In this document: one piece after another, positions 8,213 to 34,453 of the stretch
How the letters are laid out: every line of letters begins with the position of its first letter
Position numbering within the stretch: the first letter of the stretch is position 1
NCBI GenBank assembly: GCA_035529555.1
Contig: DATKWL010000025.1
Span: 1-35,808, forward strand
Direction: 5' to 3'
From: Dehalococcoidia bacterium
GTDB lineage: Bacteria > Chloroflexota > Dehalococcoidia > SZUA-161
DNA length: 35,808 bases
Program-made: the position numbers and the translations under genes
The notes under the pieces: model-generated
Told to the model about the DNA's origin: nothing
Databases searched by the model: none
What the model saw: only the letters and a program-made list of their open reading frames with translations

Positions 8213-8224
8213 ATTTGATTACAA

Positions 8225-8252: not shown

Positions 8253-8260
8253 GCGTCAAG

Positions 8261-8719: not shown

Positions 8720-8728
8720 GGCAACCTC

Positions 8729-9211: not shown

Positions 9212-9216
9212 AATCT

Positions 9217-9879: not shown

Positions 9880-9882
9880 TCT

Positions 9883-10365: not shown

Positions 10366-10380
10366 GGCGCTCCTCCCAAA

Positions 10381-10409
10381 TAAAAAAGGCCTGCGGGGCC
10401 GCAGGCTTT
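10381..10409 (-). terminator. Leader hairpin / intrinsic terminator between promoter and first structural gene
   Basis: Minus-strand RNA reads AAAGCCUGCG-GCCC-CGCAGGCC followed by UUUUUUAUUU, directly before the SD of 9883..10365. Confidence 0.55.
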
Positions 10410-10415
10410 ACATAT

Positions 10416-10444
10416 TATGTATACGAAAATTAAGAAAATGTCAA
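10416..10444 (-). promoter_or_regulatory. Sigma70-type promoter, TTGACA-N17-TACATA (alternative -10 boxes nearby)
   Basis: The minus strand reads cTTGACAttttcttaattttcgtaTACATAatatg. The -35 box and the first 7 spacer nt are identical to promoter 8225..8252. Confidence 0.55.
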
Positions 10445-10503
10445 GTATAGAGGCCGAGCGGTTTTACTAAGTAATGGTTGTATTTAACGATTGCCGGAAG
10501 TGG

Positions 10504-10519
10504 TGCTAAGTTATGGTTG
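10504..10519. repeat. Left arm of a 16-bp inverted repeat flanking ORF 10584..11090
   Basis: TGCTAAGTTATGGTTG matches the reverse complement of 11082..11097 at 15 of 16 positions. A direct near-copy CTAAGTAATGGTTGT lies at 10467. Confidence 0.4.
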
Positions 10520-10583
10520 TCAGACAAGCGGACACTACAGGTAGTGGTAGGAGAGACGCTATGCAAAGTGATAGAATAGGGAC

Positions 10584-11090
10584 ATGGATTTCAATTTCAG
10601 GCGTGGATTGTTTATCAGTCTTATTATCGGCGGGATGGCCGCTATGATGGTAGGAGTACTTTCTACGGCCGAAGCTTCTCTATGTGTTGGGATAGTAATG
10701 CTAATGTTAGCCACAATTTGGGGATTTCTGTTTTTATGCCCCAAATCCCCAGTGAAAAAATACTGGTGGTCTATCCCGGATAAACTAATGTTTGTGATAC
10801 CAAAAGAACCCGGCTACAAAGCAACAGTGCACAGTGAATATGTATCTGTCTGGGTAGACCTAACCTCCCAGTCAGGCATAATGGTTGATAGAATAGCTAT
10901 AAAAATAGGCCGGAAAAGGATTTACTCTTTTGAGTGGAAATCACATGAGGTAGCGGCACATGAACATAAATTCTTAGATTTCAAGAGACCTGATTGGTTG
11001 GGTACAGGGAAGTATGAAGCTAAGTTGATTGCTTATACCACTGAGGGCTATTCCCAATCCAGGAAGTTTATACTTGAGAATCAACCATAA
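10584..11090 (+). CDS. Membrane protein (168 aa), oppositely oriented low-GC moron
   Basis: ORF track. Two N-terminal TM helices are followed by a beta-rich domain. It is the only plus-strand gene inside the minus-strand module. The SD is weak. Confidence 0.6.
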   Translation: MDFNFRRGLFISLIIGGMAAMMVGVLSTAEASLCVGIVMLMLATIWGFLFLCPKSPVKKYWWSIPDKLMFVIPKEPGYKATVHSEYVSVWVDLTSQSGIMVDRIAIKIGRKRIYSFEWKSHEVAAHEHKFLDFKRPDWLGTGKYEAKLIAYTTEGYSQSRKFILENQP

Positions 11091-11097
11091 GTTAGCA
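11082..11097. repeat. Right arm of the 16-bp inverted repeat (overlaps the stop codon of 10584..11090)
   Basis: CAACCATAAGTTAGCA. See 10504..10519. Confidence 0.4.
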
Positions 11098-11129
11098 TCG
11101 GGTAAGGCAGCCCGAAAAACAACTATAAC

Positions 11130-11798
11130 TTAGGAGAACCGGCCGAGCTCCCTGAGCCGGCAGGGACACGACACCTTCTTAACGTCCAGGCAGATCTCCT
11201 CGTCCATGCAGGTCAGATGGATATCGTTGACAAAGGCATCCGGTATATAAGTGGAGGAAACCAAGGCCATCGGGATCCAGGGATTACGATTACATGAAGG
11301 CGGCGGCATTGTTGCCTCGAGAACATACCAGACGCCATTTTGACGCTGCACGATGACCCAGGCGTGGCCGCCAACATGGTCTACAGCAAGCTGACCAATA
11401 GCCATAGAGACCCTGTCCTCAGGCAGGCGGTTTCTCAGCAGCGATACCAAAAGATTAGACTTCCCCACGCAGTTGGCAGCCCCCTTCTTGAGCACCTGCT
11501 CAGGAAGAAGGCAGCGCTGGCAATAGACTGTGCTGTCGTAGAACTGCACGGTGCTGCCATAGGATTTGTACCTGATCTTCCGTCCAACCAGGTCCCAGGC
11601 TGCCAGGATAAATTCGTCCTCGTCCTGAGGCAGAGTAGCGGCGATATCGGCGACATTCTGAGGGCTGAACAGCTCGTCCAGTGCATATGTGCCCTTGTTC
11701 AGGCGGGACTGAATCCACCATACTGATAGACCCGCGGCTAACGAGCCGGTGAGACTCAGAAACAGATGTTGGCCAAGCTTGTTCTGTTCAGTGGTCAT
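11130..11798 (-). CDS. Transglutaminase-like cysteine protease-fold protein with N-terminal TM helix (222 aa)
   Basis: I moved the start to ATG 11798 (MTTEQNK..), which has GGGGGA upstream. The Cys-His-acid pattern GAANCVGKSNLLVSLLR ... GGHAWVIV ... YVLEAT is typical of the transglutaminase-core fold. Confidence 0.7.
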   Translation of the reverse strand: MTTEQNKLGQHLFLSLTGSLAAGLSVWWIQSRLNKGTYALDELFSPQNVADIAATLPQDEDEFILAAWDLVGRKIRYKSYGSTVQFYDSTVYCQRCLLPEQVLKKGAANCVGKSNLLVSLLRNRLPEDRVSMAIGQLAVDHVGGHAWVIVQRQNGVWYVLEATMPPPSCNRNPWIPMALVSSTYIPDAFVNDIHLTCMDEEICLDVKKVSCPCRLRELGRFS

Positions 11799-12306
11799 CT
11801 TTTTCCCCCGGCCATGATTCCAGCCATATCCCCTCATTGTCCTGCCTGACCCATAAGTGATGTGATGGTATGAGCCAGGCCAGAATGCTTTGCTTGGAAG
11901 GAGAGGCAATAAATACTTCATCGGCGACACGGTAGAGCTCATTTATAGCCTGAACAGCGTCGTCGATAGCAGGGAGATGTTCGATTACGTGCGACGCCAG
12001 TGCGGTTTTGAAAAAACCATCAGGGAAGGGGATATCCCTGACATCGGCCACCACGGATTCACAGCCAGTGCAGGCCCTGGGCTCTATGTCCAGACAGACA
12101 TCGCCACAGCCGTGCGCCTTCATGTTAAAAAGACCGCGGAGGGGATTGGTGCCGTAAGGTCCTCCCACTACCAGCATCGGCTTGCCGGCTTCCCTGGCGA
12201 TGTGCCAGGCCAGGGCGTACTTATCGTTGCGCTCCTTAACCTGGCTAAAGCCAACTTTCGCCTGCCAGCTCAGCAAAGATATAGCCAGGAAATGCACGGC
12301 TTTCAT
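11788..12306 (-). CDS. Class I SAM-dependent methyltransferase (172 aa)
   Basis: LVVGGPYG (motif I-like), CLDIEP, and ADVRDIPFPDGFFKTALASHVIEHL (Methyltransf_11-type motifs). The start is coupled to the upstream stop as ATGA. Confidence 0.7.
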   Translation of the reverse strand: MKAVHFLAISLLSWQAKVGFSQVKERNDKYALAWHIAREAGKPMLVVGGPYGTNPLRGLFNMKAHGCGDVCLDIEPRACTGCESVVADVRDIPFPDGFFKTALASHVIEHLPAIDDAVQAINELYRVADEVFIASPSKQSILAWLIPSHHLWVRQDNEGIWLESWPGEKDDH

Positions 12307-12533
12307 GATTGCGGATTTTCTCCCTTAAGCTCTTTGTCGATCTCCCTGAGGCGCTCTAAAAGTTTGTCCCTCTCGGATTCCAGTTTTTCCTTTTTATCGG
12401 GTTCTGCTTGAGCGCCCGTGTCTTCGATGGTGATTTTCAGAGGCCCCAGTTGTAGCTTGGCCTGCTCTATTTTAATCCCCAGATCTCCAAGGGTCAATTT
12501 CTTGCCCTTCTTAGGCGACTCCTCACCGTTCAT
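12303..12533 (-). CDS. Small coiled-coil protein (76 aa)
   Basis: GGAGGAG lies upstream of the ATG. The Lys/Glu/Leu-rich heptad-like sequence reads EKLESERDKLLERLREIDKELK. Confidence 0.6.
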   Translation of the reverse strand: MNGEESPKKGKKLTLGDLGIKIEQAKLQLGPLKITIEDTGAQAEPDKKEKLESERDKLLERLREIDKELKGENPQS

Positions 12534-12888
12534 GTTCTCCTCCCACTTGTGACCTCAGCCACTTTATTTCTTTATTGACCCATATCTGAGCCTTCTCATC
12601 GGCCTTAATAAGCTTGACTAACCATGGGGGCAGAAGGCTTACCAGGTCATCATCGGTCAGCGCTTCCAGAGCCCAGCGATACTTTTCGGCGGATTTAAGT
12701 GCCTGTTTCCACTCCTCGGGTATGTGAGGATAAAATCGCCGGTCGTTGTTAATGAGCCACTTGATTTTGTCCTCCCCGATGGTATTCAGGACCGGCCACA
12801 GGTGCTCTTCCGCGGGGTCCCTGGCCTCTGAAAGTACGACATGTCGCTTCAGACCTTTGACATTAAACTTGGGAAACTTCACTTTCAT
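12523..12888 (-). CDS. Hypothetical protein (121 aa)
   Basis: ORF track. GGAGG lies 9 nt upstream. The gene is operonic with its neighbours through short overlaps. Confidence 0.6.
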   Translation of the reverse strand: MKVKFPKFNVKGLKRHVVLSEARDPAEEHLWPVLNTIGEDKIKWLINNDRRFYPHIPEEWKQALKSAEKYRWALEALTDDDLVSLLPPWLVKLIKADEKAQIWVNKEIKWLRSQVGGEHER

Positions 12889-13834
12889 CCTTGGTCGCCT
12901 CCACTATTTCCCATACCGAGCCGCATCCGCCTTCATCAGTTTTGCACTCCACCTCTGCAGCATCCGGCGGCACATCCAGCATTTTGCCACAGGTACACTT
13001 GACCTTCTTGGGCCTTATTATCCTCTCCCGGGGAGGAGGCTCTGCCTTCTGTTTTCTTGCCGGCGCCTCGTAGCCCTCCTCCGTTTCGATTGACTCCATA
13101 ATACCCTCCGCCAGGTTCAGCAGTTTTGATGTTGCTTTGTCCTTGCGCTGCTCATCTTTTTGCGCAAGTAGCTGGGTGTCAGCTGCCGCTTGTTTCCTCA
13201 GTTCAAAATCCTCCAGCCAGTGACGGTCATCTATTTCCCAGCGGCGCTTCTTTTCCGCCAGGTCTTCTGTCCACCGGTCATGACGGCCCGACTCGGCTAT
13301 CTTGATCTTCTCCAGCTCTATCATATTGGGCAGGTCGGAGGGTTTCGTAGCCATGGAATCTGGAAGTCCCATCCGTTTCTTTAGCTGGTCGACCAAGGTG
13401 TTTAGCTTGACATCAGTCGCCATCAACAAGTCTATCGGGTCGGCCGTGCCCTCGGAGACCTTCTGTTTCAAGTCATTGAGGTCTTCCTTGAGATGATCCA
13501 GATAAAGGTCTGAGCCTGACCCTTTGCCGCCTTCACTCAGTTTATTCAGCGCAGACTGTACCAGCTCGCTCTGAGACTTGAAAATTGTTCCGATGTCTAT
13601 TGTCACCTTCTCGTCCGATTTCCCCACGGCAGCCGGTGGGGCCTCTTCTTTAATCCCCGCAGCCTGCTTGAAGGCTTTCAATCTCTCGCCTCTATAGACC
13701 GCAGCTTCGATCTGGTCAACGGGGTCTGGTGCCTCTTTTTCCTCCTTCGGTTTCTCAGATGGGGGTTGCGCCGTTAGGTTCAGCTTCCTCGACACATCTT
13801 CCGCGAAGTCCTTCCTGTCCGTTGGTCCTGCCAT
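12863..13834 (-). CDS. Long coiled-coil protein with C-terminal zinc ribbon (323 aa); a scaffold-like role is only a guess
   Basis: AGGAGG lies 6 nt upstream of the ATG at 13834. A charged helical body is followed by the C-terminal segment CTCGKMLDVPPDAAEVECKTDEGGCGSVW. Confidence 0.7.
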   Translation of the reverse strand: MAGPTDRKDFAEDVSRKLNLTAQPPSEKPKEEKEAPDPVDQIEAAVYRGERLKAFKQAAGIKEEAPPAAVGKSDEKVTIDIGTIFKSQSELVQSALNKLSEGGKGSGSDLYLDHLKEDLNDLKQKVSEGTADPIDLLMATDVKLNTLVDQLKKRMGLPDSMATKPSDLPNMIELEKIKIAESGRHDRWTEDLAEKKRRWEIDDRHWLEDFELRKQAAADTQLLAQKDEQRKDKATSKLLNLAEGIMESIETEEGYEAPARKQKAEPPPRERIIRPKKVKCTCGKMLDVPPDAAEVECKTDEGGCGSVWEIVEATKDESEVSQV

Positions 13835-14201
13835 GATTGCCTCCTGTCCCTGTTTGATAGATTGACCTCATGAAGCGGCACGCTACTCGTATGAAAGAGG
13901 AGAAGTCACCCTCAGCCCCCATACTTTTCACATCGCGATACTGGTCGTAGGCATCATCGATGTCAATGCGAAAGAGTGGTATTCTGTCGTCGCCCAGGAT
14001 GAAGGTATGAAGAGGCTGTTCCTTTGTGGTGCTGAGAGGTTGACTCTGGGTGAGGGATGGCTTAAGGCCGGCGCCGTTCTTCTTGAACTGCTGGAAATAG
14101 TTATAGGTCGTTCTTTTTCCCAGTCCCAGCGCCTTCACGTCCGGGTCGCTGGGACGTTTACCCTGGGAGTATAGCTCAAAGGCCTGCTCTTTCTTGCTCA
14201 T
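13755..14201 (-). CDS. Helix-turn-helix protein (149 aa), first gene of the minus-strand arm
   Basis: I moved the start to ATG 14201 (MSKKEQAFELYSQGKRPSDPDVKALGLGKRTTYNYFQQFKK, HTH-like). The track's 5' extension would cover the operator region. The 3' end overlaps the next gene by 80 nt. Confidence 0.55.
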   Translation of the reverse strand: MSKKEQAFELYSQGKRPSDPDVKALGLGKRTTYNYFQQFKKNGAGLKPSLTQSQPLSTTKEQPLHTFILGDDRIPLFRIDIDDAYDQYRDVKSMGAEGDFSSFIRVACRFMRSIYQTGTGGNHGRTNGQEGLRGRCVEEAEPNGATPI

Positions 14202-14216
14202 AGCCACCCGCCTCGA

Positions 14217-14290
14217 TGTAGTACACCAGATGTAGTGCACTAGCGGTGCATCTGAGTGTAGTGCACTATCACTACACCCGGTGTAGTGAA
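14217..14290. promoter_or_regulatory. Operator array: five TGTAGTG half-sites, including two TAGTGCACTA palindromes
   Basis: TGTAGT[AG]CAC occurs at 14217, 14231 and 14257, and TGTAGTGAA at 14282. An inverted CACTACA at 14270 forms TGTAGTG-N6-CACTACA. Confidence 0.6.
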
Positions 14291-14311
14291 ACCCGCAGGC
14301 CTTTCTCCAGT

Positions 14312-14344
14312 ATTTTACCACATTTTTGCAAGACATGGTATAAT
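14312..14344. promoter_or_regulatory. Back-to-back divergent extended -10 promoters
   Basis: Plus strand: TTACCA-N18-TGgTATAAT, with the -10 box at 14339..14344. Minus strand: TGgTAAAAT, with the -10 box at 14317..14312. The two -10 regions form an imperfect inverted repeat. Confidence 0.5.
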
Positions 14345-14358
14345 CGACAGAGGAAGGG

Positions 14359-14414
14359 ACCTGCGGGCTAAAGCCTTTACCGTTAAGGTTGGGCACTCGT
14401 CGCGCAGGTTTTTT
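14359..14414 (+). promoter_or_regulatory. Leader hairpin with U tract immediately before ATG 14418
   Basis: ACCTGCG (14359) pairs with CGCAGGT (14403). TTTTTT then runs into AATATG. No SD is visible, so the hairpin may act as an attenuator or structured leader. Confidence 0.4.
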
Positions 14415-16287: not shown

Positions 16288-16568
16288 TTCTTACCCCTCC
16301 CCTTTTGCGCTTCTGTGAGCCTATTGTATTCCTCGAGATAGGTCTCATTACAAAACAATCCGCAGCGGCACCGGTTGATTTCTCTTATATCCTGCAGGGA
16401 CTCCTCACAGGGACAGTGAGCCCTTCCCGGCACACAGGGACAGCAGCCCCCCTTTTTCAGCACCAGGTCGGCCCAGCCGGAGGCAGTCTGGCCGGGGTGG
16501 ATCTGCAATCCGTTGGCCAGGGCAAAATCAGAGATTGCTTGAACCAGGGACTCCTTTTCCATTTCCAT
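16257..16568 (-). CDS. Ferredoxin:thioredoxin reductase catalytic-subunit-like protein (103 aa)
   Basis: The cysteine signature CCPC-x6-CPC-x12-CRCGLF resembles the CPC..CPC..CHC-x-LF signature of FTR catalytic chains. Confidence 0.65.
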   Translation of the reverse strand: MEMEKESLVQAISDFALANGLQIHPGQTASGWADLVLKKGGCCPCVPGRAHCPCEESLQDIREINRCRCGLFCNETYLEEYNRLTEAQKGRGKKWNRRPKISS

Positions 16569-16596
16569 GTTGTCTACCCTATGATTTGTTTATCAC

Positions 16597-16625
16597 TTGA
16601 CAGCCTACTTGATTATAATTATACT
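16597..16625 (+). promoter_or_regulatory. Promoter, TTGACA-N17-TATACT, ending 6 nt before the integrase ATG
   Basis: TTGACA at 16597..16602 and TATACT at 16620..16625. There is no SD before ATG 16632. Confidence 0.55.
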
Positions 16626-16631
16626 CCAGCT

Positions 16632-17375
16632 ATGCAATACAGGTCGGAGAGCACCAAAAAGACATACGAGGTACACCTCCGTCTCTACCTCAAGTGGCTG
16701 GATGGAAGGAAGCAGGATGCCCGGAACGCCCAGGAATACATCGACCACATGCTCGATTCTGGCAGAAAACCGAACTATATTGCAACCGCGGCCAATGCCC
16801 TGCGGGCGCACTGGAAAGACGGAGGGAAAGCGCTAAGCCTCCATGCGCCCACTCCGGAGGTGGGATATCCCAAGTATCTCACGATAGACCAGATTTACAA
16901 GCTCCTGGCGTCTGCCAAGACAGCGCTGGAAAAGTGCATCCTCACTCTGCTTTTTGACACCGGGGCGCGCATCTCCGAGGTTCTAAACCTGCACCTTGAA
17001 GATATAAATCTCGAGGAGCGATTACTGCACGTTACTCGTAAAGGCGGCAGGGAAGAGGATGTTCTCCTGGGTGAAAAGGGGCAGCAGGCGCTGGAGATAT
17101 GGCTTAAGACGAGGAAAAGTAAGGATAAACGGGTCTTCATGGATTACACCTATAACGATATCTATTATATCCTCAAAGAAACCGCGAAAAGGGCCGGTAT
17201 CGAAAATTTCGCCCCCCACATGTTAAGGCATTCTCTCGCTTTCTATATGCTATCGAAGGGCAAGGACCTTCACGACATCCAGGAGATCCTGGGTCACCGG
17301 TCGATAGCAACGACCGCCAATATCTATGCTCGCAGAAAGCCCGAGCATCTGCGAAAGGTGAAGCCGGACTGGTGA
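16632..17375 (+). CDS. Tyrosine recombinase, short XerC/D-like or invertase-like (247 aa)
   Basis: Catalytic signatures DTGARISEV (Arg), HMLRHS (HxxR) and LGHRSIATTANIYA (His..Tyr). I chose the internal ATG because the track's 5' extension is antisense to 16257..16568. Confidence 0.9.
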   Translation: MQYRSESTKKTYEVHLRLYLKWLDGRKQDARNAQEYIDHMLDSGRKPNYIATAANALRAHWKDGGKALSLHAPTPEVGYPKYLTIDQIYKLLASAKTALEKCILTLLFDTGARISEVLNLHLEDINLEERLLHVTRKGGREEDVLLGEKGQQALEIWLKTRKSKDKRVFMDYTYNDIYYILKETAKRAGIENFAPHMLRHSLAFYMLSKGKDLHDIQEILGHRSIATTANIYARRKPEHLRKVKPDW

Positions 17376-20011: not shown

Positions 20012-20383
20012 ATGTACGATGGCTGGACCCACGGCGTGAAGACGAAGTGCCCCAAGTGCGGCAGCGACGATTGTAATGACACCATCGGTAACCAAACCGT
20101 TGTCGGAATCAAAGTATCGGCCCATGTCATATACTGCAACACTTGCGGCTATCGGAAGGAGGAACTTCTCAAAGATAAAAAGACGATATGGGCTGAGGAG
20201 CATGTAAAAAAGCTCAAATGTAATAAGTGCGGCGTGGAATACTCATCGCCCGAGGACCGAGAGTTTGCAGAGAAGATGAGCAAATCATGGGGAGAGAGTC
20301 TACGATCTGATGGAATTGAACCGACAGGCATAGCCCCATGCCCTAACCTCACCTGCCCGGGTGAGCTCGTAGTGCTGGAATAG
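20012..20383 (+). CDS. Double zinc-ribbon protein (123 aa)
   Basis: AAGGAGG lies upstream of the ATG. Cysteine pairs: CPKCG..C, CNTCG, CNKCG, CPNLTCPG. Confidence 0.65.
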   Translation: MYDGWTHGVKTKCPKCGSDDCNDTIGNQTVVGIKVSAHVIYCNTCGYRKEELLKDKKTIWAEEHVKKLKCNKCGVEYSSPEDREFAEKMSKSWGESLRSDGIEPTGIAPCPNLTCPGELVVLE

Positions 20384-23115: not shown

Positions 23116-23149
23116 TCCAGCTCTAACTGGATTTTAGGGAGGTGAAAAA

Positions 23150-23524
23150 GTGGCTCGTAAATTTATCGTAGACGGGAGAGAGTTCCCAGACCCGGATCCT
23201 AGCAAGTCGCCGGAGGAAGTCAGGCGCATGATGACCGACTTCTTCCCCGAGCTGTCCACCGCGACCACGCAGGAGCACAAGCAGGGTGATGATACCGCCT
23301 ATGAATTCATCAGGCGGACCGGCACAAAGGGTCGCAAGGGCAGCAAGTCTGTACCAATACACTGTGCGGTTTGCGCAACAGACAAGAACATCGCCTGCCC
23401 CCGAGATGTAGATGCTCAGTGTGCCCACTGCGGCGGGTACTTCTGTGGTGGCCATATCGGCGGCCACCTGAAGTCTGTCCACTGCGTTAGCCTGGACCTC
23501 GATTACGTCACCAGAAAGGACTAG
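23150..23524 (+). CDS. Ubiquitin-like (PRTRC protein C-type) domain fused to a C-terminal Cys/His-rich extension (124 aa)
   Basis: GGGAGGTG lies 5 nt upstream of the GTG start. Residues 1-61 read ..RKFIVDGREFPDPDPSKSPEEVRRMMTDFFPELSTA....YEFIRRTGTKG, like the small PRTRC Ub-like proteins that end in GTKG. Residues 62-124 carry about 10 Cys/His. Confidence 0.6.
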   Translation: MARKFIVDGREFPDPDPSKSPEEVRRMMTDFFPELSTATTQEHKQGDDTAYEFIRRTGTKGRKGSKSVPIHCAVCATDKNIACPRDVDAQCAHCGGYFCGGHIGGHLKSVHCVSLDLDYVTRKD

Positions 23525-23528
23525 GCTG

Positions 23529-23750
23529 ATGGAAAAGTACATCGAGGCGCTTCAAAAGCTGCCACTATGTCGCCCCGCAGTCATTGGCCTGGCGTGGAAA
23601 TTCACCAGGCCCGATGGCAGCCTGGATGAGGATCTCATGAGCTTTCACATCGAGGAGATCCGCGAGGCCGGGCAAGAGGCGCGGGCTATCGTTAACTCTA
23701 CCAGAGAGGCGGTAAGGTTGCTATGGCGATTGCAGCGCTCGACCAGCTAA
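23529..23750 (+). CDS. Hypothetical protein (73 aa)
   Basis: ORF track. It starts 2 nt after the upstream stop, inside the cassette. Confidence 0.5.
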   Translation: MEKYIEALQKLPLCRPAVIGLAWKFTRPDGSLDEDLMSFHIEEIREAGQEARAIVNSTREAVRLLWRLQRSTS

Positions 23751-24904
23751 GCCGTAAGCTAGTAAGCCTCGCATCTCCGCCCTCGCTGCCGGACCTTGAA
23801 ACCATTCTCTGCAGCGCGGAAGACTACAGGGCATTCATGCGCATAGTGCGTGAGTTTTTGCCCGAGATAGAGGATGACGTGCGCAGGGCGGGGTCACCGC
23901 CAGATAAGATGGCAGTTTTCGCCACCGCCTTTGAACGCCGGTACTTTCCTCTGCATCCCTCGTTCCAGGATGGGGCAACTGAGGCGTACGACCAGCTGGT
24001 ACGCATGATTCCCGTCATGGTCCTTAGTACGGATTGGGATGATTACCATACCATAGCCGAAGATAGCTGGCAGGCGGGACTGCAGCTGGCGACCTATCTG
24101 CTGGCCGATCCCTATGGTGAGGTGTCGAGAGGTTCACGTACTCCCCTGGCGGAGACATGCGCCCACCATGTTCACCGGCATCTCCTGAGGCGTGTTCCTG
24201 AAGCAGGGCTGGGGAACGAAGAGGTGCACAAGCTGCTTGACGGCACAAAATTCGAGGCGCTGGCCACCTGGTCGGATATGCTGGGCATGTGCTGCGGTAA
24301 TGCATTTACAGATAATTCCGCAGAGCAGGCATTCACGCCTTGCCCAGCCCTTGATTGGACCCGGGAAAATATTGATGCGCTCACGCAGCAATGGCTACAG
24401 GCGGAGGTCATACAAAACAAAACGAACAACCTGTTCGCCTGGATCGAGGAAGATCCGACAGGTCACCTGACGGAGCTTCTCGACTTTATAGACGACAGGC
24501 GCCGGGAGCTGGGCAAAAAGCCTATGAAGCCCTCCCGTGTTCCCAAGTTCAAACCGCGAGCTTCGGACATAAAGTGGGTGCAGGACCTGGTGAGGCAAAT
24601 AAGCATGGGCGGCGTATGGGTAGCCCCTGCAGGCTTCGAGTTCCAGAAGGTGGGGGAGCGGGAGATAAAGCTCACCAGGGCCAGCAAGGACCCCAGGCAG
24701 CACGCTGACGCCATGGAGTTGATTAACCGAACAGTTGCCTGTGGCAAGGCAGGACGTATCAAGGTAAATATCGATGACTTGGAAAAAATTCTGAAGGGAG
24801 GTAAGCATGACGCTGACGCAGGAACCACAAGCGCTCCAGTGGCAACTGCCAGAGAAATTGGAAGTGCAGCCCGACCAGCTCAAGGTCAGGCTAGACTTCT
24901 ATGA
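23723..24904 (+). CDS. Large cassette protein (393 aa); possibly a PRTRC protein F-type component
   Basis: ORF track. Size and position inside the Ubl/E2/JAB/E1 cassette are the only support. Its 3' end overlaps the next gene by 98 nt. Confidence 0.55.
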   Translation: MAIAALDQLSRKLVSLASPPSLPDLETILCSAEDYRAFMRIVREFLPEIEDDVRRAGSPPDKMAVFATAFERRYFPLHPSFQDGATEAYDQLVRMIPVMVLSTDWDDYHTIAEDSWQAGLQLATYLLADPYGEVSRGSRTPLAETCAHHVHRHLLRRVPEAGLGNEEVHKLLDGTKFEALATWSDMLGMCCGNAFTDNSAEQAFTPCPALDWTRENIDALTQQWLQAEVIQNKTNNLFAWIEEDPTGHLTELLDFIDDRRRELGKKPMKPSRVPKFKPRASDIKWVQDLVRQISMGGVWVAPAGFEFQKVGEREIKLTRASKDPRQHADAMELINRTVACGKAGRIKVNIDDLEKILKGGKHDADAGTTSAPVATAREIGSAARPAQGQARLL

Positions 24905-25532
24905 GAGCTGTGTAGTAGCCCACTTCTGCGGCAATGGTGTAATCAGCAGTCGCACAGTATCAGCGCAGGACGTGGCTCTAGCTTTGCTGGGTGAAACCAA
25001 CCTGCTGAGCGGGCTGCTGCCGCGCGATACCCTCTGCTGGGGCCCGGGCGAGATTGCGATGTGGGTCGAGCCGCGCGTCTGGCCGGTGGCGCTCATGACC
25101 GAGCCATTCCAGCCCCCGCAGCGGCTGAAGTTGCCCATGCCCGGGCTGATCTTCATCTGCCGCCCTGGGCAGCCACCCAGGGTGTATGCTGCCAAGCGGC
25201 GCCCGTCAGACATGGAGGCCATAATCTATCATGCACCGCTGTTCAATGTCTATAACGACGGGCGGAGCTGCGCCGGCAATAACAAGTACCCGGACAAGCT
25301 CGAGGAGATTCCCAAGGCCTTCTTCCTCAGCTTCTTCAGCATAGTGAGCGACTCGGCGAAGCGGTCGAAGAAGTACCCCGATAGCCTGATGAAGTTATGG
25401 CTCGAGCTTAACGGCAAGACCAAATACCCGATGGATGACCTTGTGCCCCTGGTGCGGCTCAAGGACGTAATCGGCAACAAGACCAGCGTTTTAATCCCGG
25501 ATATCATTGCCAACCTCGAGAATGAGGGGTAA
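24807..25532 (+). CDS. E2/UBC-like protein (PRTRC protein B-type, 241 aa)
   Basis: GGGAGGT lies 5 nt upstream of the ATG. The segment IYHAPLFNVYNDGRSCAG gives His..Asn-x7-Cys, the HPN..C spacing of E2 active sites. LPMPGLIF, YAAKRRP and FFLSFFS blocks match my memory of prokaryotic E2 family B. Confidence 0.6.
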   Translation: MTLTQEPQALQWQLPEKLEVQPDQLKVRLDFYESCVVAHFCGNGVISSRTVSAQDVALALLGETNLLSGLLPRDTLCWGPGEIAMWVEPRVWPVALMTEPFQPPQRLKLPMPGLIFICRPGQPPRVYAAKRRPSDMEAIIYHAPLFNVYNDGRSCAGNNKYPDKLEEIPKAFFLSFFSIVSDSAKRSKKYPDSLMKLWLELNGKTKYPMDDLVPLVRLKDVIGNKTSVLIPDIIANLENEG

Positions 25533-25552: not shown

Positions 25553-26119
25553 GTGATGGGAAACGTCGGATATCGTTACTTCACTGACCATGGGCTGGTG
25601 GGCGAGCCAGGCCTGTATTATGACTATATCGTGGGCGGAAACGGGCTGTTTATCCGTGCCGGCAATCGCTTCATTAACGCTACTGTCTGCATTGGCCATG
25701 CCAAGATCAGAGGCCTCCAGCCGATACGCCCGCTGGTGGTTTTGAAGCAGGGCAAGATTCCCTGGGGCATCTACCATGAGGCGATACGGATACTGATGGC
25801 AGACGCCCTGTGCGAGCACTACCTGGCCGTGGTGTGGACGGACGGCTATCAGCTGGTCCATCCGCAGCAACTGGGTACCGAGGCTTCATGTATGTATGAG
25901 CGTGTGCCCGATACCGTGATGGAGATCCACAGTCACGGCCTGATGAGCCCATTCTTCAGCGGCATAGATAATGCCGATGAGCAGAGCATGGCTATCTATG
26001 CCGTGGTAGGCGGACTCGACCGATTCATACCTGACGTTAATCTGCGTATCGGTCTATATGGTTATTACGACAGGCTAAATCATAATGAGGTGTTTGGAGA
26101 TGTACAAGCTGTCAAATAA
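25553..26119 (+). CDS. JAB/MPN (JAMM) metallopeptidase (PRTRC protein A-type, 188 aa)
   Basis: Complete JAMM motif: an upstream Glu (LCEHY), then EIHSHGLMSPFFSGIDNADE, which is HxH-x7-S-x2-D. The start may be GTG 25553 or ATG 25556. Confidence 0.85.
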   Translation: MMGNVGYRYFTDHGLVGEPGLYYDYIVGGNGLFIRAGNRFINATVCIGHAKIRGLQPIRPLVVLKQGKIPWGIYHEAIRILMADALCEHYLAVVWTDGYQLVHPQQLGTEASCMYERVPDTVMEIHSHGLMSPFFSGIDNADEQSMAIYAVVGGLDRFIPDVNLRIGLYGYYDRLNHNEVFGDVQAVK

Positions 26120-26900
26120 CTGGCGCGGCAATTACCCAAGAGATGATTACAGAATTGCGGTCATCGGGTGTGGCGGCACGGGCGGCTTTGTCGCTGAAGG
26201 CCTGTGCCGGATGCTCCCTGACCATCTGGTGGTCATGCTTATTGACCCTGACCGTGTTGATGAGCGGAATCTGGTGAGGCAGAATTTCTATGCCGGCGAG
26301 CTGGGGCAGTTCAAGAGCCAGGCACTGGCTAAGCGCCTGAGCCAGAAGTTCAACCGCCGCATCGCCTATTTCACCAGCCCGATATCCATGCTCGAGGCTT
26401 TTCCCGACGTAATAATCGGCTGCGTGGATAACGGGCCTGCTCGTCGCGATATTGCAGATAAGATAACCCGGAAATATAACCCGTTCGGCATGTTCCGCGG
26501 CTGGTGGGTTGATTCAGGAAATGAAAGGAATTTCGGGCAGGTGCTCATCGGCAATCACCCTGCTAGCGGGCTTGAAGAGAGTTTTGAAACAAAGCGTGAG
26601 ATATGCTTGGCGCTTCCGCTGCCCACGGAGCAGCGACCGGAGCTTTTGCTGACGCTGCCGGCGGCGCCCGCATGCGCCGATATGGATGAGCAGGGCCCGG
26701 TGATAAACCAGTGCATGGCATCGTTGGTGCTCGAGGTGGTGTGGCGTATCCTTGTGGGCACTTGCTCCTGGATGCAGCTCAACCTCGATATGGAGATGGG
26801 CACGCTCGCGCCTGTGCTGGCAACTCCCGAGAATGTATCAGCAATAACGGGGATAAAGGTCAAGAGTCTAACTTTTGTTGAAAGTAAAGGAAGGAGGTGA
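26100..26900 (+). CDS. ThiF/MoeB/E1-like adenylyltransferase (PRTRC ThiF-family protein, 266 aa)
   Basis: Rossmann loop IAVIGCGGTGGFVAEGL, then LIDPDRVDERNLVRQNF and IIGCVDNGPARRDI. ATG 26100 is preferred over 26085 because GAGGTG lies 10 nt upstream. The gene overlaps the JAB gene. Confidence 0.85.
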   Translation: MYKLSNNWRGNYPRDDYRIAVIGCGGTGGFVAEGLCRMLPDHLVVMLIDPDRVDERNLVRQNFYAGELGQFKSQALAKRLSQKFNRRIAYFTSPISMLEAFPDVIIGCVDNGPARRDIADKITRKYNPFGMFRGWWVDSGNERNFGQVLIGNHPASGLEESFETKREICLALPLPTEQRPELLLTLPAAPACADMDEQGPVINQCMASLVLEVVWRILVGTCSWMQLNLDMEMGTLAPVLATPENVSAITGIKVKSLTFVESKGRR

Positions 26901-26903: not shown

Positions 26904-27200
26904 ATGGCTTCAGCGGAAATTAAAATCGTAATCGTGCTGAAGGAGAACCGCGCCTCGGTGGGCATACAGGCGCCCGAGTGTGACCCTATCATCTCAACGC
27001 TCGAGGGCGACCTGGTAACCGTTTGCGGCGAGCTGCCCGCGCTGGTAGCCCAGGCAGAGCAGAAGTGGAGCGAAAGCCCGCGTTTTGCCAAGGCTGTTAT
27101 AGTCGAGCCGCCCGCGTCGGTTCCCGCCGTCACAGCCACTGGTGGGTCCCCCAGAGCCCCCAAGCCCGCAGCCCCAGCGGTCAAGCCCACCTGGTTCTAA
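26904..27200 (+). CDS. Small protein with a Pro/Ala-rich tail (98 aa); possibly PRTRC protein E-type
   Basis: GGAGGTGAG lies upstream of the ATG. It is the last gene of the cassette. The family assignment rests on position and composition only. Confidence 0.55.
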   Translation: MASAEIKIVIVLKENRASVGIQAPECDPIISTLEGDLVTVCGELPALVAQAEQKWSESPRFAKAVIVEPPASVPAVTATGGSPRAPKPAAPAVKPTWF

Positions 27201-27314: not shown

Positions 27315-27351
27315 GTGGTAAGAATTATGCCCTGGAAAGGAGGTGAGAAAG

Positions 27352-28707
27352 ATGAAAATACAGGTGCTGAAACTCCGTAATGCCCTGGGTTTGCTTGAGG
27401 GGTTGGCTACCGTTAAATCCGCCAGGACAAAAGCGACTGCTAAATCGGGTAAAGGAGGGAGAAAGTCGACGAAGACAACCTTTAAACCTCAAATCTACCC
27501 GGTGCTGAGCAATGTCCTGTTACAGGATGGCATGGCAATAGCAACCGACCTTGAGATCGGGGTAACTGTGGCATTGGATGAGGTTGTCGGTCAATACCTG
27601 CTGCCATATCGAGAGGTGTCTAAGCTTCTTCGATATGTTCCAGGCAACGAGGAGGTGGAGATTGCTATGATGGGACATAGCCTATCGTTGAGCTGGGAGG
27701 GCGGCAGTGCTAATTACCAGGCCGATGACCCTGCAGAATACCCGGTATTGCCGCAGATAAACCCGGTAATAAAATGTGCCGTATCGGCTGACATACTGAC
27801 GCCTGCACTCGTGTCCATGCTGGACTATTGCTCTGACGAACAGGAAAGGCCAGTGCTGACCGGCGTGAGCCTTTTCTTGGGCACACAGCTTGAACTGGCT
27901 GCCGGTGATGGGAACCGCATGGCGTACAAGACGTTGCCGATATCCATACCACCGGCTGACGGTCTTAAGACAGTCATCCTGCCCCAGAGGGTGGTGAAAA
28001 CCATGGAACTCCTGTGGAAGAAGGCGCCCAGGCCAATACCAGAGGATACCTCGGTGATAGATATAGCCTCTATGGTAGCCACCAAGGGGCCGATGGAATT
28101 GGAGCTGAGCCCGATACTGATAAGGGTTCAGTTCGGCATAGTGACATTGTTGGCCAAGACAATCACGGGCACGCCGCCAAACTTCAAACAACTCATACCC
28201 TCTTCCGGTAGCTCTCAGTTCAATTCTGTGAACATCTATGCAGCGGACCTCGAGATAGCGCTGCGCCGCATTATGGGAGCTGTTGAAGTTGGAGAGGCCG
28301 CGGCGGTGCGTATGGAATGGGACAATGGCAAGATGAAGCTTGCCACGGGCTATCTGGAGAACCGCATTGAAGTCTCTATGCCCGTGGGTACTTCCAATGG
28401 TGCGGGACGGGTTGCCCTTGACTTCAAATACCTCATGGAATACATCAAGGGCAAAGCGGGGTTGATAACCATGGACGTATCAACGCAGACCAACCCTGTT
28501 CTCTTCCGGCATAGCAACTCGCCGCTTGTCTGTATCATGCCCATGAACGTAAGCTGGCCAGGCGACCCCGTGGCAGAAACTAAAGCCGAGACAGTACAGG
28601 AAACTACAGCAGCACAGAAATCCGAGGAAACCAATGCAGAGGAGCCTGAGGACGAGACCGCCGAAGATGAAGACAAATCCGCAGAGGGAGAAGGGGCTGC
28701 TGCCTAG
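27352..28707 (+). CDS. dnaN: DNA polymerase III beta (DnaN)-like sliding clamp with a basic insertion and acidic C-terminal tail (451 aa)
   Basis: AAGGAGGTG lies 6 nt upstream of the ATG. The N-terminus MKIQVLKLRNALGLL....YPVLSNVLLQDGMAIATDLEIGVTVAL parallels the PILGNLLL..G.L.LTGTDLEME region of bacterial DnaN. The length fits three clamp domains plus a tail. Confidence 0.75.
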   Translation: MKIQVLKLRNALGLLEGLATVKSARTKATAKSGKGGRKSTKTTFKPQIYPVLSNVLLQDGMAIATDLEIGVTVALDEVVGQYLLPYREVSKLLRYVPGNEEVEIAMMGHSLSLSWEGGSANYQADDPAEYPVLPQINPVIKCAVSADILTPALVSMLDYCSDEQERPVLTGVSLFLGTQLELAAGDGNRMAYKTLPISIPPADGLKTVILPQRVVKTMELLWKKAPRPIPEDTSVIDIASMVATKGPMELELSPILIRVQFGIVTLLAKTITGTPPNFKQLIPSSGSSQFNSVNIYAADLEIALRRIMGAVEVGEAAAVRMEWDNGKMKLATGYLENRIEVSMPVGTSNGAGRVALDFKYLMEYIKGKAGLITMDVSTQTNPVLFRHSNSPLVCIMPMNVSWPGDPVAETKAETVQETTAAQKSEETNAEEPEDETAEDEDKSAEGEGAAA

Positions 28708-28743: not shown

Positions 28744-28758
28744 GCTCCTTTGAGGTCA

Positions 28759-29361
28759 ATGATGAAAACAACGGTCTGCCGTGGCTGCCCTCGACGTTTT
28801 CGGCAGAGAAAACGCGGGCGGCAATGGTACTGCAAGGCATGCCGCCTCAAGCGCCAAAAAAAGGATCGCAAGCACAGAGCACATAAAAGGATGGCGCGCT
28901 ACTACAGGCGGCTGCGCCGTGGTCTTTGCCCTGAGTGTGGGGGCTGGCGTGATGGCGAAGGGATACAGTGCCGGCAGTGCCGGGAACAGAACAAAAACGC
29001 ACAGAGGCGTTGCATAACGAGCCCGAGGAGAGCCAGATACATGCGCCGTCTCCTCAAGCGCAGGCGCAGGGAGGGCATGTGCGCCTATTGCGGGCGGGAA
29101 ATTGACGAACCCGGGTACCGGATGTGCTCTAAATGCCGCAAGCATGGCAGGGATTATTACTACATACCTGAGGTGCATGAGAAGGTCAGGCTTTATGCCA
29201 AGGATCACTACCATCATGAGCCTGTCCCTATCTGCAAGGTATGCGGTTGTCCCCACCTTCGCTGCGACCGCTGCCAGAAATTTATGAAGGCGACTCATGG
29301 CAATGATAGGTGTATCTGGACCTGCAGGTGTGGCATCGAGAAAACATTTCGAGGTCCTTGA
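28759..29361 (+). CDS. Highly basic protein with three zinc-ribbon plus Arg-rich-helix repeats and a C-terminal Cys cluster (200 aa)
   Basis: Three CxxC-x10-14-CxxC units are each followed by an Arg-rich stretch (RYYRRLRR, RYMRRLLKRRRR, or KHGRDYYY). The start is ATG 28759 or 28762. Confidence 0.7.
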   Translation: MMKTTVCRGCPRRFRQRKRGRQWYCKACRLKRQKKDRKHRAHKRMARYYRRLRRGLCPECGGWRDGEGIQCRQCREQNKNAQRRCITSPRRARYMRRLLKRRRREGMCAYCGREIDEPGYRMCSKCRKHGRDYYYIPEVHEKVRLYAKDHYHHEPVPICKVCGCPHLRCDRCQKFMKATHGNDRCIWTCRCGIEKTFRGP

Positions 29362-29993
29362 TGGCAAAAAATTACACACGCAACAATAAAAACAATCATC
29401 GATGGACTGAGGACGAAACTCTAATTGTGCGCCGTGACTACAAGGGCGACAAAGCTTCCACGCAGGCGATTGCCGACGGCTTGGGCGTCAGCTTCTATGC
29501 AGTCAAGGGCCAAGTATCGAAGATGGGGATAACCTTCCAGGACAGGCAGTACTGGACCAAGAGGGAAGAGGAACGGCTAAGAGAGTTGATGCCGCGATAT
29601 GCCCCCACCCGGGTTGCCAAGATAATGCACAGGTGCCTTAACTCCGTAGTGCTCAAGTCTAAAAGGTTGGGGATATCCAGGAGGACCCGATACGGCTGGT
29701 TCACCAAGCAAGAGGTGTGCGAGATCCTGGGTGTAGACCACAAGTGGCTACAGAAGCGGATTGATTCAGGGTCGTTGAAGGCAAGATACCATTATCCCTA
29801 TCATAAGCCTGGGAAGTTGGGCATGGCTTCATGGGAGATAGACGAAAAAGACCTGGTGCGGTACATACGCCGCTACCCGCAGGACCTCATGGGGCGCAAC
29901 GTCGATATTATACAGATAGTAGAGATGCTGGCTGGATTGCTTAATCACGTCGCCCCTGATAATGAACCCGATTATTATTTAGAAGGGAGGTGA
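29361..29993 (+). CDS. DNA-binding protein with two SANT/Myb-like repeats plus an HTH (210 aa)
   Basis: The start overlaps the upstream stop (TGATG). Repeats are HRWTEDETLIVRR..IADGLGVSFYAVKGQVSKMGI and QYWTKREEERLRE..VAKIMHRCLNSVVLKSKRLGI, followed by WFTKQEVCEILGVDHKWLQKRI. Confidence 0.65.
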   Translation: MAKNYTRNNKNNHRWTEDETLIVRRDYKGDKASTQAIADGLGVSFYAVKGQVSKMGITFQDRQYWTKREEERLRELMPRYAPTRVAKIMHRCLNSVVLKSKRLGISRRTRYGWFTKQEVCEILGVDHKWLQKRIDSGSLKARYHYPYHKPGKLGMASWEIDEKDLVRYIRRYPQDLMGRNVDIIQIVEMLAGLLNHVAPDNEPDYYLEGR

Positions 29994-30958: not shown

Positions 30959-31843
30959 TTACTGGGCTGATATCCTGAACCAGACCCTCAGATTCTCGTC
31001 AGTGAGGCTGTACTCGTTTCCCGCACCCCAGCCCTGACTTTGGTACCACATTCGCTCGATGGAGCCTAGAAAGTCATCTTCGCTGCCGATGAGAGATGCG
31101 ATTATCTGCCCCAGAAATCCACTGAACAGAGACTCGATGCCCATCCCCGCACCGCCGGTCACAGCAGTCAGGGCGGCTGAACCCAGGGACTGGGTAACCA
31201 GAGCTTCAAAGTCGCTACTGTCTTTCTCATAGGCAACAATGTACAACCTGAGATAACTACCGACCTCAGGGAACGATATGGTCTCATACACTGCCTTTGT
31301 TTGATTGCGCTCGATGCTGAGATACTCTTCGTCCCGGGAGGGTATACGAATTATACTTTTATTTATCCCATCGTCTGCTGCGATGTGTATATACTGCTCC
31401 GGGGCGCCGCGCAGCCAGGACTCGCCGGTCTCAAACACGCCCACCTGGTAGATGGTGATAGTAATAGTGGGGTTCATCGTTGTGGCACTCGCCGGCACTG
31501 CCTGGGAGCTCTCTCCCGCCGCGTTGAAGGCTGCTGCAGTGTACGTGTAGGGCGTGGCGTAGTTAAGCCCTCTATCCTGGAAAGTATTGACATTGGCGTT
31601 GACAGCCCCGACGGAGGTACCATCCCTGTAGATATTGAATCCCAGTTCATCCGAGGAGTTATCGCTCCACCAGAGACTCACCGCGCTGGAGGATATCGCC
31701 TGGGCGGTCAAATTGGAGGGAACTGCCGGCGGCGAGAGTATCTGAGGGTTTGCCACTGACGGCTGTGAGGCGCTACCGCAGCCTGTACCGAGAATCAGAC
31801 AGAGGGTGATCAATGCGGCTAATAAAATGTTGAGTTTCCCCAT
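30959..31843 (-). CDS. Secreted lipoprotein with a fibronectin type III domain (294 aa)
   Basis: Signal peptide plus lipobox (LILGTGC). The FN3-like segment reads PSNLTAQAISSSAVSLWWSDNSSDELGFNIYRDG...YTYTAAAFNAAGES. GGAGGTG lies upstream of the ATG. Confidence 0.8.
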   Translation of the reverse strand: MGKLNILLAALITLCLILGTGCGSASQPSVANPQILSPPAVPSNLTAQAISSSAVSLWWSDNSSDELGFNIYRDGTSVGAVNANVNTFQDRGLNYATPYTYTAAAFNAAGESSQAVPASATTMNPTITITIYQVGVFETGESWLRGAPEQYIHIAADDGINKSIIRIPSRDEEYLSIERNQTKAVYETISFPEVGSYLRLYIVAYEKDSSDFEALVTQSLGSAALTAVTGGAGMGIESLFSGFLGQIIASLIGSEDDFLGSIERMWYQSQGWGAGNEYSLTDENLRVWFRISAQ

Positions 31844-33271: not shown

Positions 33272-34453
33272 ATGGGTTTAAACGAAATAATTGCTCGCAT
33301 CGGTACTTCCGTGGGATTGACCCCCCGTGAGCGGACCGGCTATAATGATTATCCTCCAAGAACATCCTCACAGGATCAGGCTGGGGTGGAGGCTGCCGGG
33401 GAGGTCGATGTTGGGGAGCCGCGTTTTCACGACATTCTAAGAAAGCTATCCCCCTCCAACCGAAGGCTGATCAGGGAGCTGGCTTTCAAGCTGGCAACGG
33501 CGCAACCGCTCGCAGACCAAGCAACGGACGAATCCTCCAATTTGCAGGAGTTCGTGGATTCCTGGCTCCTGTCCTTGACGGTCAGGGGCAGGAGCCTCAA
33601 GACGATTGCCCTCTACGGGAACTATGTGTGCCGGCTGCTCGAGAAATACCCCAGCCCGACGAGAAACGACCTCCAGGAGCTTCTGGCACAGAGGGCCTTT
33701 ACGGTCGGTGTGCACGCCCAGGGCAATGCCATCAACGCCTACAGGTCGTTCTTCACCTACCTGACCGATAACAATATCATCACCAACAATCCCGCAGCGG
33801 GCCTGAAATCGCCCTCCAGACCCTTGCGGGAGCGGAATATTCCCCCCGCGAGCGACATAGCCCGGCTGCTGACGGCCCCCATGTTAAACGACAGGGACCG
33901 TGCCATAATCCGGACGCTGTCCTCATGCGGCCTCAGAATCGGGGAATTACTATCCCTCAAGCGCTCCGACGACGTAGACCTGGAGAAAATGAGGCTCCGG
34001 GTTATCGGAAAGGGCAACAAGCAGCGCTCCGTGCCCATGACCGAGGAGACGGCAGCCTGTATCCAGCGCTACCTGATCACCGCCCCACCCTCAGTATGGC
34101 TCTTTCCCGGCAATGACCCCACCAGACCATACAGCGAAAGCGGGCTGGATAACCGGTTTGCTTCCCTCTGTAAGAAGGCAAAGGTTAAGCCAATAAAACC
34201 GCACCAGCTCAGGCATTACCTCGCCAGCTATCTGCTCAAAAAGGGCGTAAATCTGAAGGTGGTGTCCCAGATCCTGGGACATGCCAGCCCCTCAGTCACC
34301 GCCAATGTCTACTGGCACCTGCTCGATGAGTCGGAAAGGGAAAAGGCATATTACCAGGCCAAACCGCTCCAGGATGTGGATGAGGAAATAATGATGAGAA
34401 GCGCTGTAGCTCAACTGAGCTTTGAGTTCGATATCGAGCCTGAGGAAGTGTAG
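33272..34453 (+). CDS. int: Tyrosine integrase with a long N-terminal arm/SAM-like region (393 aa)
   Basis: Signatures CGLRIGELLSL (Arg), GKGNKQR (Lys), HQLRHY (HxxR) and LGHASPSVTANVYWH (His..Tyr). The N-terminal core-binding-like segment reads LKTIALYGNYVCRLLEKY. Confidence 0.9.
   Translation: MGLNEIIARIGTSVGLTPRERTGYNDYPPRTSSQDQAGVEAAGEVDVGEPRFHDILRKLSPSNRRLIRELAFKLATAQPLADQATDESSNLQEFVDSWLLSLTVRGRSLKTIALYGNYVCRLLEKYPSPTRNDLQELLAQRAFTVGVHAQGNAINAYRSFFTYLTDNNIITNNPAAGLKSPSRPLRERNIPPASDIARLLTAPMLNDRDRAIIRTLSSCGLRIGELLSLKRSDDVDLEKMRLRVIGKGNKQRSVPMTEETAACIQRYLITAPPSVWLFPGNDPTRPYSESGLDNRFASLCKKAKVKPIKPHQLRHYLASYLLKKGVNLKVVSQILGHASPSVTANVYWHLLDESEREKAYYQAKPLQDVDEEIMMRSAVAQLSFEFDIEPEEV

Follow-up and report, generated by a model that had tools for sequence, protein, structure and literature searches.

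Why should a bacterial ubiquitin-like protein (Ubl) be encoded with 63 further residues, rich in Cys and His, behind its conserved terminal glycine? The question is raised by a stretch of 35,808 nucleotides from a Dehalococcoidia bacterium (contig DATKWL010000025.1; hereafter the window), in which the Ubl gene stands at the head of an operon for E2-, JAB- and E1-type enzymes. This operon is of the PRTRC type, and cassettes of this type are widespread on plasmids, integrative and conjugative elements (ICEs) and integrative elements. Our analysis suggested that the product is probably a precursor, in which the Ubl is fused to a cargo protein and is cleaved after Gly61 by the JAB peptidase of the same operon. 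The open reading frame (ORF) at 23150..23524 on the plus strand starts with GTG, encodes 124 amino acids (aa) and ends with a TAG stop. The first-pass annotation of the locus had described it as a Ubl up to Gly61 followed by a 63-aa Cys/His tail; this division was confirmed, and the letters of the tail were as quoted there. The parts of the gene are as follows.

23137..23142, plus strand: Shine-Dalgarno sequence GGGAGG, 7 nt 5' of the GTG start, by direct sequence reading
23150..23332, plus strand: Ubl domain, residues 1-61, Prok_Ub / PRTRC_C-like, with the end ...RRTGTKG
23330..23335, plus strand: predicted JAB cleavage junction Gly61/Arg62, placed at the conserved G[TA]KG boundary
23333..23362, plus strand: basic linker, residues 62-71 (RKGSKSVPIH), from the alignment; first 10-residue block of the AF2 model, pLDDT 74
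23363..23494, plus strand: predicted binuclear Cys4-Cys-His3 zinc-finger module, residues 72-115, from alignment invariants, 90 representatives, the AF2 model and an omega of 0.08
23495..23524, plus strand: C-terminal residues 116-124 and the TAG stop

The Ubl domain was matched by the Pfam family Prok_Ub (PF14454) with an E-value of 7.9e-12 and 45.2 bits (cut-off 25), the alignment reaching the last profile position. With the NCBIfam model TIGR03738 (PRTRC_C) it aligned through position 66/66 at Gly61 and scored 44.6 bits, 1.3 bits short of the cut-off of 45.95. The identical protein, annotated in a Dehalococcoidia metagenome-assembled genome (MAG), carries the NCBI label 'PRTRC system protein C'. 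Residues G58, K60 and G61 were invariant in 20 Ubl relatives. The AF2 model calculated from 5 sequences contained strands at residues 3-7, 10-13, 39-45 and 48-54 and helices at residues 21-29 and 33-37 (pLDDT 65-73), corresponding to a beta-beta-alpha-beta-beta layout of moderate confidence. The Foldseek search with the full-length model gave no significant match, PB1 and the protein G/L B1 domains, which are of the beta-grasp type, appearing at E 0.7-1.5; the search was uninformative because the full-length 5-sequence model had a pLDDT of 49.8. The Ubl domain contains no Cys and one His, and the 63-aa tail 7 Cys and 5 His.

Such a protein could arise artificially if a frameshift in sequencing or assembly, or the loss of a stop codon, had merged two genes, or if the ORF call was wrong; the genes in these elements are indeed tightly packed, and the downstream gene does undergo fusion and fission. 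However, the identical 124-aa protein was recorded on 5 contigs, and the whole architecture of Ubl and Cys/His tail in one frame was found in four further clusters (P0002-P0005) of 65-75% identity, in which the frame was kept across the junction. These clusters came from independent NCBI, JGI, ENA and Logan assemblies with the same operon around the gene, P0002 being present on 21 contigs (JGI, ENA, Logan). The copies on 5 contigs and the four homologous clusters exclude a frameshift or assembly error, which the first-pass annotation had named as a possible objection. Codons 62 to 72 contained no in-frame ATG, GTG or TTG; this ruled out that translation of the tail begins at a start of its own, and the finger is therefore made only as a fusion. 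In the comparison of the window with the related locus L001, where dS was about 1.2 and synonymous sites were near saturation, the Ubl had an omega of 0.19 and the tail one of 0.12, falling to 0.08 over residues 72-115. The tail is thus under purifying selection and is a real, selected domain. With the clusters, the contig copies, the omega values and the missing start codon all against it, the probability of an artefact is negligible.

The residues following the terminal Gly were compared among the relatives of the Ubl, which comprised 114 further loci: 53 were taken from GTDB species genomes, nearly all of them MAGs of Chloroflexota/Dehalococcoidia, and the other 61 from IMG/VR. In each ORF, the point at which the Ubl profile ends was determined, and 117 distinct complete proteins were counted. 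The motif G[TA]KG was essentially invariant at the Ubl boundary (121 loci). The tail was absent from 17 proteins, 1-11 aa long in 29 and 12-49 aa long in one, and reached at least 50 aa in 70 (60%), so that long tails are the majority state. These counts overturned the premise of the first-pass annotation that the glycine of GTKG is the last residue of PRTRC C-type Ubls, which holds for only 17 of the 117. The PRTRC C protein of pHG1 continues for 5 residues beyond the Gly (...AGAKG-AHARI), and that of an Azonexus plasmid has a 57-aa tail. The proposal that the extension would be new for this family also failed, given the 70 relatives with tails of at least 50 aa. The same annotation had held that homologues commonly carrying similar extensions would speak against processing. 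The extensions proved to be common but not similar, the long tails falling into many mutually unrelated sequence families, and such a pattern argues for cleavage, not against it.

Among these Ubl relatives, the finger tail was confined to the clade of the window (the window and L001-L003). In L009, the closest genomic relative of the window Ubl (79% identity), no residue follows the Gly, and the same is true of the Ubls of L010, L012, L013, L016 and L017, indicating that a free Gly61 is the functional state in sister lineages. This Ubl family thus shares with precursor Ubls a conserved C-terminal Gly followed by non-conserved residues, and its bimodal pattern, with either a propeptide or a whole domain behind the Gly, resembles that of eukaryotic ubiquitin (Ub) and Ubl precursors. 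Pro was the first residue after the Gly in none of 104 tails, the commonest being Ala (42), then Arg, Ser and Gly; the bias could reflect a preference at the cleavage site, in sequences that are not independent of each other. The suggestion of a precursor-type fusion with its junction at the conserved terminal Gly is supported by these comparisons.

The genes following the fusion ORF are these.

23529..23750, plus strand: 'p73', a conserved partner gene of 73 aa without a family, beginning 4 nt past the Ubl stop
23723..24904, plus strand: 393-aa protein in the PRTRC F position, overlapping p73 by 28 nt
24807..25532, plus strand: E2-like protein, Prok-E2_D / PRTRC B-like (Pfam E 1.2e-19; Asn147 and Cys155 invariant)
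25553..26119, plus strand: JAB/JAMM metallopeptidase, PRTRC A-like, candidate processing enzyme (Pfam Prok-JAB 26.9 bits, cut-off 25)
26085..26900, plus strand: E1-like adenylating enzyme of the ThiF family (Pfam ThiF E 4.7e-15; TIGR03736 108 bits)
26904..27200, plus strand: 98-aa ORF
27343..28707, plus strand: divergent sliding clamp of the DnaN type (TIGR00663 E 2.9e-22, under the cut-off), C-terminal tail long and acidic

The JAB protein had been proposed as the peptidase acting after Gly61. Its identity was confirmed, the full JAMM motif (E88, H126-x-H128, S136 and D139) being invariant in the alignment, and on comparative evidence it is the obvious candidate for cutting at this site. The E1-like protein likewise retained its conserved residues in the alignment, namely the GCGGTGG loop, N62/R65/Q66, D115 and C197. 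No second match to the Ubl profile was found within the window. Genes for E2, JAB and E1 were all present within 6 kb downstream in each of the 59 long-tail loci that extended far enough; among the loci with a short tail or none, the proportion was 40 of 42. The order of Ubl plus tail, p73, a protein of 350-480 aa, E2, JAB, E1 and a protein of about 100 aa was common to three tail types, and ended with the DnaN-like gene where the locus extended far enough. For the 393-aa protein, Pfam, NCBIfam and PHROGs gave no family; the place it takes in the operon was conserved in L001-L006 (350-484 aa) and equals the PRTRC F slot of the canonical cassettes in L007 and L008. An ORF of about 100 aa followed E1 in L001-L005, and a DnaN-like gene was found after E1 in L001-L003, L005 and L006. 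The recurrence of the DnaN-like gene suggests a link of the Ubl cassette to the replication of the element.

Several tails were also found as free-standing proteins. Homologues of p73 were fused in frame directly after GTKG in 21 loci and formed a separate ORF in 41 loci, the distance from the Ubl stop to the start of these separate ORFs being in most cases about 40 nt or less. Judged from these sequences, p73 is a conserved partner that alternates between a fused and a separate form. The tail of P0007 was also matched within the window: the C-terminal half of ORF 20012..20383 shares 44% identity with it (E 2e-18), so that a second protein family of the window serves elsewhere as a Ubl tail. 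This ORF, on the plus strand, encodes a free-standing 123-aa protein with CxxC pairs. DUF6166 (PF19663) forms the tail of the P0018 Ubl; in P0082 (L127, 1575..2153), a protein that lacks a Ubl, it precedes the finger as N-terminal partner. Shuffling of small domains among fusion partners is thus a feature of these elements. In the locus L129, a free-standing finger was located 3.5 kb upstream of a Prok_Ub gene with a different tail, a CPEC...CAQC zinc ribbon, which was followed by p73. L129 is a metagenomic element in which the finger and the Ubl (3687..4139 and 7620..8027) lie near genes for Ku, an ATP-dependent DNA ligase and LPD29.

On the favoured reading, the 124-aa product would be translated as one chain, and the operon's JAB/JAMM peptidase (25553..26119) would cut the peptide bond after Gly61. 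One product would be the mature Ubl of 61 aa, its GTKG end carrying a free carboxyl group, to be adenylated by the ThiF-type E1 and passed on to Cys155 of the E2. The other would be a free two-zinc finger protein of about 63 aa, acting alone as its many free-standing homologues presumably do. The Ubl gene would then serve as a 5' fusion slot, into which small accessory proteins of integrative elements have been plugged repeatedly. It is possible, if somewhat doubtful, that this holds for PRTRC-type Ubl genes in general, with the finger, p73, zinc ribbons, DUF6166 and others having been captured behind GTKG, co-translated and released by JAB. Such a slot would be the bacterial counterpart of eukaryotic ubiquitin-fusion genes; Ubl and cargo would be made in a 1:1 ratio, and the cargo might also be chaperoned. 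This broader pattern, of accessory proteins taken up behind the Ubl in a fusion slot, is of more interest than the single case and is directly testable. If most Ubls of this type are fusions with interchangeable cargo, this would be the strongest comparative argument so far that they need a free C-terminus. PRTRC-type Ubls would then be true conjugatable modifiers processed by their JAB, for which cleavage of the natural substrate would be a simple and decisive assay, and the eukaryotic 'ubiquitin fusion gene' strategy would extend to bacterial mobile elements.

Processing of precursor Ubls by a cognate JAB is already known, as are extensions in the PRTRC C family, where they are common. In eukaryotes, UBA52 (Ub-eL40) and RPS27A (Ub-eS31) have ubiquitin fused to the N-terminus of a small zinc-binding ribosomal protein, which is released by a peptidase and acts alone. 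These fusions and Caldiarchaeum pro-ubiquitin share with the window protein a Ub or Ubl located N-terminal to a tail, the eukaryotic cargo being also small and zinc-binding. In contrast, the cargo in the window is non-ribosomal, variable between close relatives and drawn from accessory proteins of mobile elements, so that the likeness to the eukaryotic cargo is one of analogy, not homology. The bacterial peptidase BilC cuts BilA at Gly97/Ala98 and also cuts a BilA-GFP fusion (PMC10557695). An archaeal, operon-linked JAMM peptidase of the Rpn11-like type removes the 9-aa propeptide of pro-ubiquitin and cuts Ub-sfGFP, and the pro-form with its propeptide is not activated by the archaeal E1 (PMC5654768). 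JAB processing of fused prokaryotic Ubls was predicted by Iyer, Burroughs and Aravind in 2006 (PMC1779556). In the searchable literature, we found no description of the prevalence or modularity of domain-sized tails behind GTKG, nor of the C4-C-H3 finger family described below.

The positions of Cys and His in the tail are H71, C72, C75, C83, C91, H93, C94, C99, H102, H106, H111 and C112. In the 37-member alignment of the wider finger family, C72, C75, R85, C91, C94, C99, H102, H106 and H111 were invariant, giving the ligand pattern C-x2-C-x15-C-x2-C-x4-C-x2-H-x3-H-x4-H. The enrichment in Cys and His is far beyond chance, since eight ligands are invariant across the 37 members. The pattern given in the first-pass annotation was right as to a Cys/His-rich tail. 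Its spacing between C75 and C83 should have been x7, not x8, and it included H71, C83, H93 and C112, which are variable across the family. Its proposal that the ligands would suffice for a binuclear zinc module gained comparative support from the eight invariant positions, which would fit two zinc ions in a predicted binuclear zinc-binding module. The spacing and secondary structure suggest a partition into C72/C75/C99/H102 and C91/C94/H106/H111. The AF2 model of the tail calculated with the 37-member alignment had a mean pLDDT of 91.8.

The word-indexed homologue search with the tail alone gave no match, and the exhaustive profile search of 1.84 billion representative proteins identified 90 clusters at E<=1e-3, 36 of them at E<=1e-10. 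The finger family thus consists of about 90 clusters at 50% identity. Nearly all of these are free-standing proteins of 55-100 aa, a few having other N- or C-terminal domains, and behind a Ubl the module was seen, among the 90 clusters, only in the window's own clade. Fusions of the finger to partners other than a Ubl were found in P0031, P0042, P0048, P0082, P0087 and P0103.

The assignment of the finger to a known family was attempted with several collections. No Pfam model reached its threshold, and scans of NCBIfam and PHROGs found no such family. The most consistent weak match was zf-UBP (PF02148), obtained for 28 of the 37 members at E<=1 (best E 4e-4) over profile positions 1-45 of 63, the window tail scoring 13.6 bits against a threshold of 22.7. 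Other weak Pfam matches among the members were the ANCHR B-box (16), S27e (9) and AN1 (9), and for zf-AN1 (PF01428) the window tail scored 10.3 bits against 27.9. In comparison with the AN1 pattern used here (C-x2-C-x9-12-C-x1-2-C-x4-C-x2-H-x5-H-x-C), ligands 3-6 of the finger have the AN1 spacing, and the first spacer (x15) and the last two ligands (H-x4-H) differ from it; taken as C-x2-C ... C-x2-C-x4-C-x2-H, ligands 1-6 are spaced in an AN1-like way. Sequence-profile searches of the PDB with the tail gave only non-significant matches (eS27 at E 0.011; WRNIP1 UBZ; USP16 and HDAC6 at E 1-4). Foldseek searches of the PDB and BFVD with the confident tail model found nothing at E<=0.001, the best E being 0.6. 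The top non-significant whole-domain matches were the MetAP1 ZnF, MYND, ZNHIT1, the ZFAND1 AN1 (E 1.4) and the Cbl RING, with TM values of 0.35-0.43, and the C-terminal half superposed locally on C2H2 beta-beta-alpha units with an RMSD of 0.6-1.0 A over 25-29 residues.

As no Foldseek match reached E<=0.001, no fold family was assigned to the finger. Its identification as zf-UBP, AN1 or B-box was rejected, no score being above threshold; for zf-UBP, moreover, the profile was covered only in part and Foldseek gave no support. We describe it here as a binuclear Cys4-Cys-His3 finger of cross-brace type that no curated family covers. It bears a weak Pfam or Foldseek resemblance to the cross-brace fingers zf-AN1, zf-UBP, B-box, MYND and HIT, but reaches no curated threshold and has H-x4-H, not H-x-C, as its last two ligands. 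At about 50 aa it is also roughly half a ZnF-UBP, a fold of about 100 aa with a pocket for a free Gly-Gly tail. As a two-zinc finger family without curation, it is a candidate partner of a bacterial ubiquitin-like pathway. In a bolder extension of the favoured reading, the released finger, weakly zf-UBP- and AN1-like as it is, might serve the Ubl C-terminus exposed by the cut, as its receptor or as an E3-like adaptor.

The same architecture could instead belong to a stable protein whose two domains stay joined, without any cleavage. The Ubl would then be a docking module that is not conjugated, as in ZFAND4/An1 or Rad23, and would recruit the finger to E1, E2, JAB or a target, the finger acting there as a recognition element of the adaptor or E3-like kind. 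ZFAND4/An1 is a protein composed of a Ubl and an AN1 finger. The weak likeness of the window finger to fingers of the ubiquitin system (zf-UBP in 28 of 37 members, AN1 and B-box) agrees with this alternative, as does the promiscuity of the finger, joined elsewhere to several unrelated N-terminal domains; the p73 fusions in 21 loci are compatible with a permanent two-domain protein. An adaptor of this kind also has a precedent in theory, as Iyer et al. (2006) proposed the Zn-finger proteins of such operons to be target-recognition or E3-like adaptors (PMC1779556). However, it leaves unexplained why the boundary always falls exactly at the conserved Gly, why 46 of the 117 relatives have no residue or only 1-11 residues behind it, and why the closest Ubl relatives end there. 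A blocked C-terminus on the only Ubl of the operon would, in addition, leave the intact active sites of E1 and E2 without a substrate. We therefore regard the uncleaved protein as rather unlikely, though it is the most serious competitor of those considered here.

A further alternative accepts the cleavage and denies the finger a role after it, the tail being a regulatory propeptide that merely holds the Ubl inactive until JAB acts. The failure of uncleaved archaeal pro-ubiquitin to be activated by its E1 is in line with such a function, and the tails of 1-11 aa in 29 relatives can only be propeptides. A mere cap, on the other hand, need not be a 63-aa domain more strongly constrained by purifying selection than the Ubl itself (omega 0.08-0.12 against 0.19), nor have eight invariant metal ligands and about 90 clusters of free-standing homologues, and a functionless finger is distinctly improbable.

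Several points weigh against the precursor cleaved after Gly61 as well. The finger is fused to non-Ubl partners, for which no cleavage is expected, and can therefore work inside a larger protein. Residues K63 and K66 of the linker were invariant in the alignment of the 5-member clade, as would also suit the uncleaved protein, and this conservation could imply a role of the linker beyond that of a cleavage site. For the beta-grasp fold of residues 1-61, the basis is the Pfam match together with a model of moderate confidence. The relatives were sampled by pattern, a sampling that is not unbiased. We also found no mechanistic work on PRTRC in the searchable literature, from which the biochemistry and conjugation of PRTRC-type systems are absent.

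The cassette of the window was compared with the two bacterial systems it most resembles. The PRTRC cassette (ParB-related, ThiF-related cassette; TIGR03735-03742) of proteobacterial plasmids and ICEs, such as pHG1 of Cupriavidus necator, has the same core genes in the same order, namely C, a protein of about 390 aa in the F position, B, A and ThiF. It also shares the G[TA]KG end of the Ubl, the location on mobile elements and, in canonical copies, residues after the Gly. Homologues of PRTRC A, B and ThiF were co-located at 24807-26900 in the window, with best matches to TIGR03737, TIGR03735 and TIGR03736, all below the equivalog cut-offs; the scores were 44.6 against 45.95 for C, 64.8 against 131 for B, 40.7 against 102 for A and 108 against 145 for ThiF. 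Unlike the PRTRC cassette, the window gave no NCBIfam or Pfam match to ParB, D, E or F among the flanking ORFs scanned, which were part of the window ORFs. A ParB gene was found downstream in the related locus L005. The window also adds the conserved p73, the 98-aa protein and the DnaN-like clamp, and its hosts are Chloroflexota/Dehalococcoidia MAGs. As judged by these comparisons, the window cassette is a divergent PRTRC branch.

The Bil (bacterial ISG15-like) system likewise has an operon of Ubl, E2, JAB and E1 and encodes one or more residues past the reactive Gly. In contrast to the folded domain in the window, the extension of BilA is a single residue in the system studied. The protein families differ as well, no Bil family being matched in the window, and Bil is an anti-phage defence, whereas the window cassette is located in an integrative element with replication-type genes.

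The region of the Ubl cassette was bracketed by two genes for tyrosine integrases on the plus strand, at 16305..17375 and 33272..34453 (phrog_1, E 5e-40 and 2e-51), indicating an integrative element. The megablast search of 22000-30000 against phage and plasmid collections gave no match. A candidate 203-aa ORF at 28750..29361 on the plus strand encodes a very basic protein with many CxxC pairs and matched no family. It is almost wholly overlapped by an antisense ORF of 207 aa (28756..29379), and either strand could be the coding one. A block of minus-strand ORFs extends over 3348..14396, and none of the nine scanned (192-322 aa) had a PHROG family. Opposite in strand to the cassette, the minus-strand gene at 30959..31843 encodes 294 aa, in which Pfam detected a fibronectin type III domain (E 2.6e-7); the protein shows a weak similarity to tail or virion proteins of phages.

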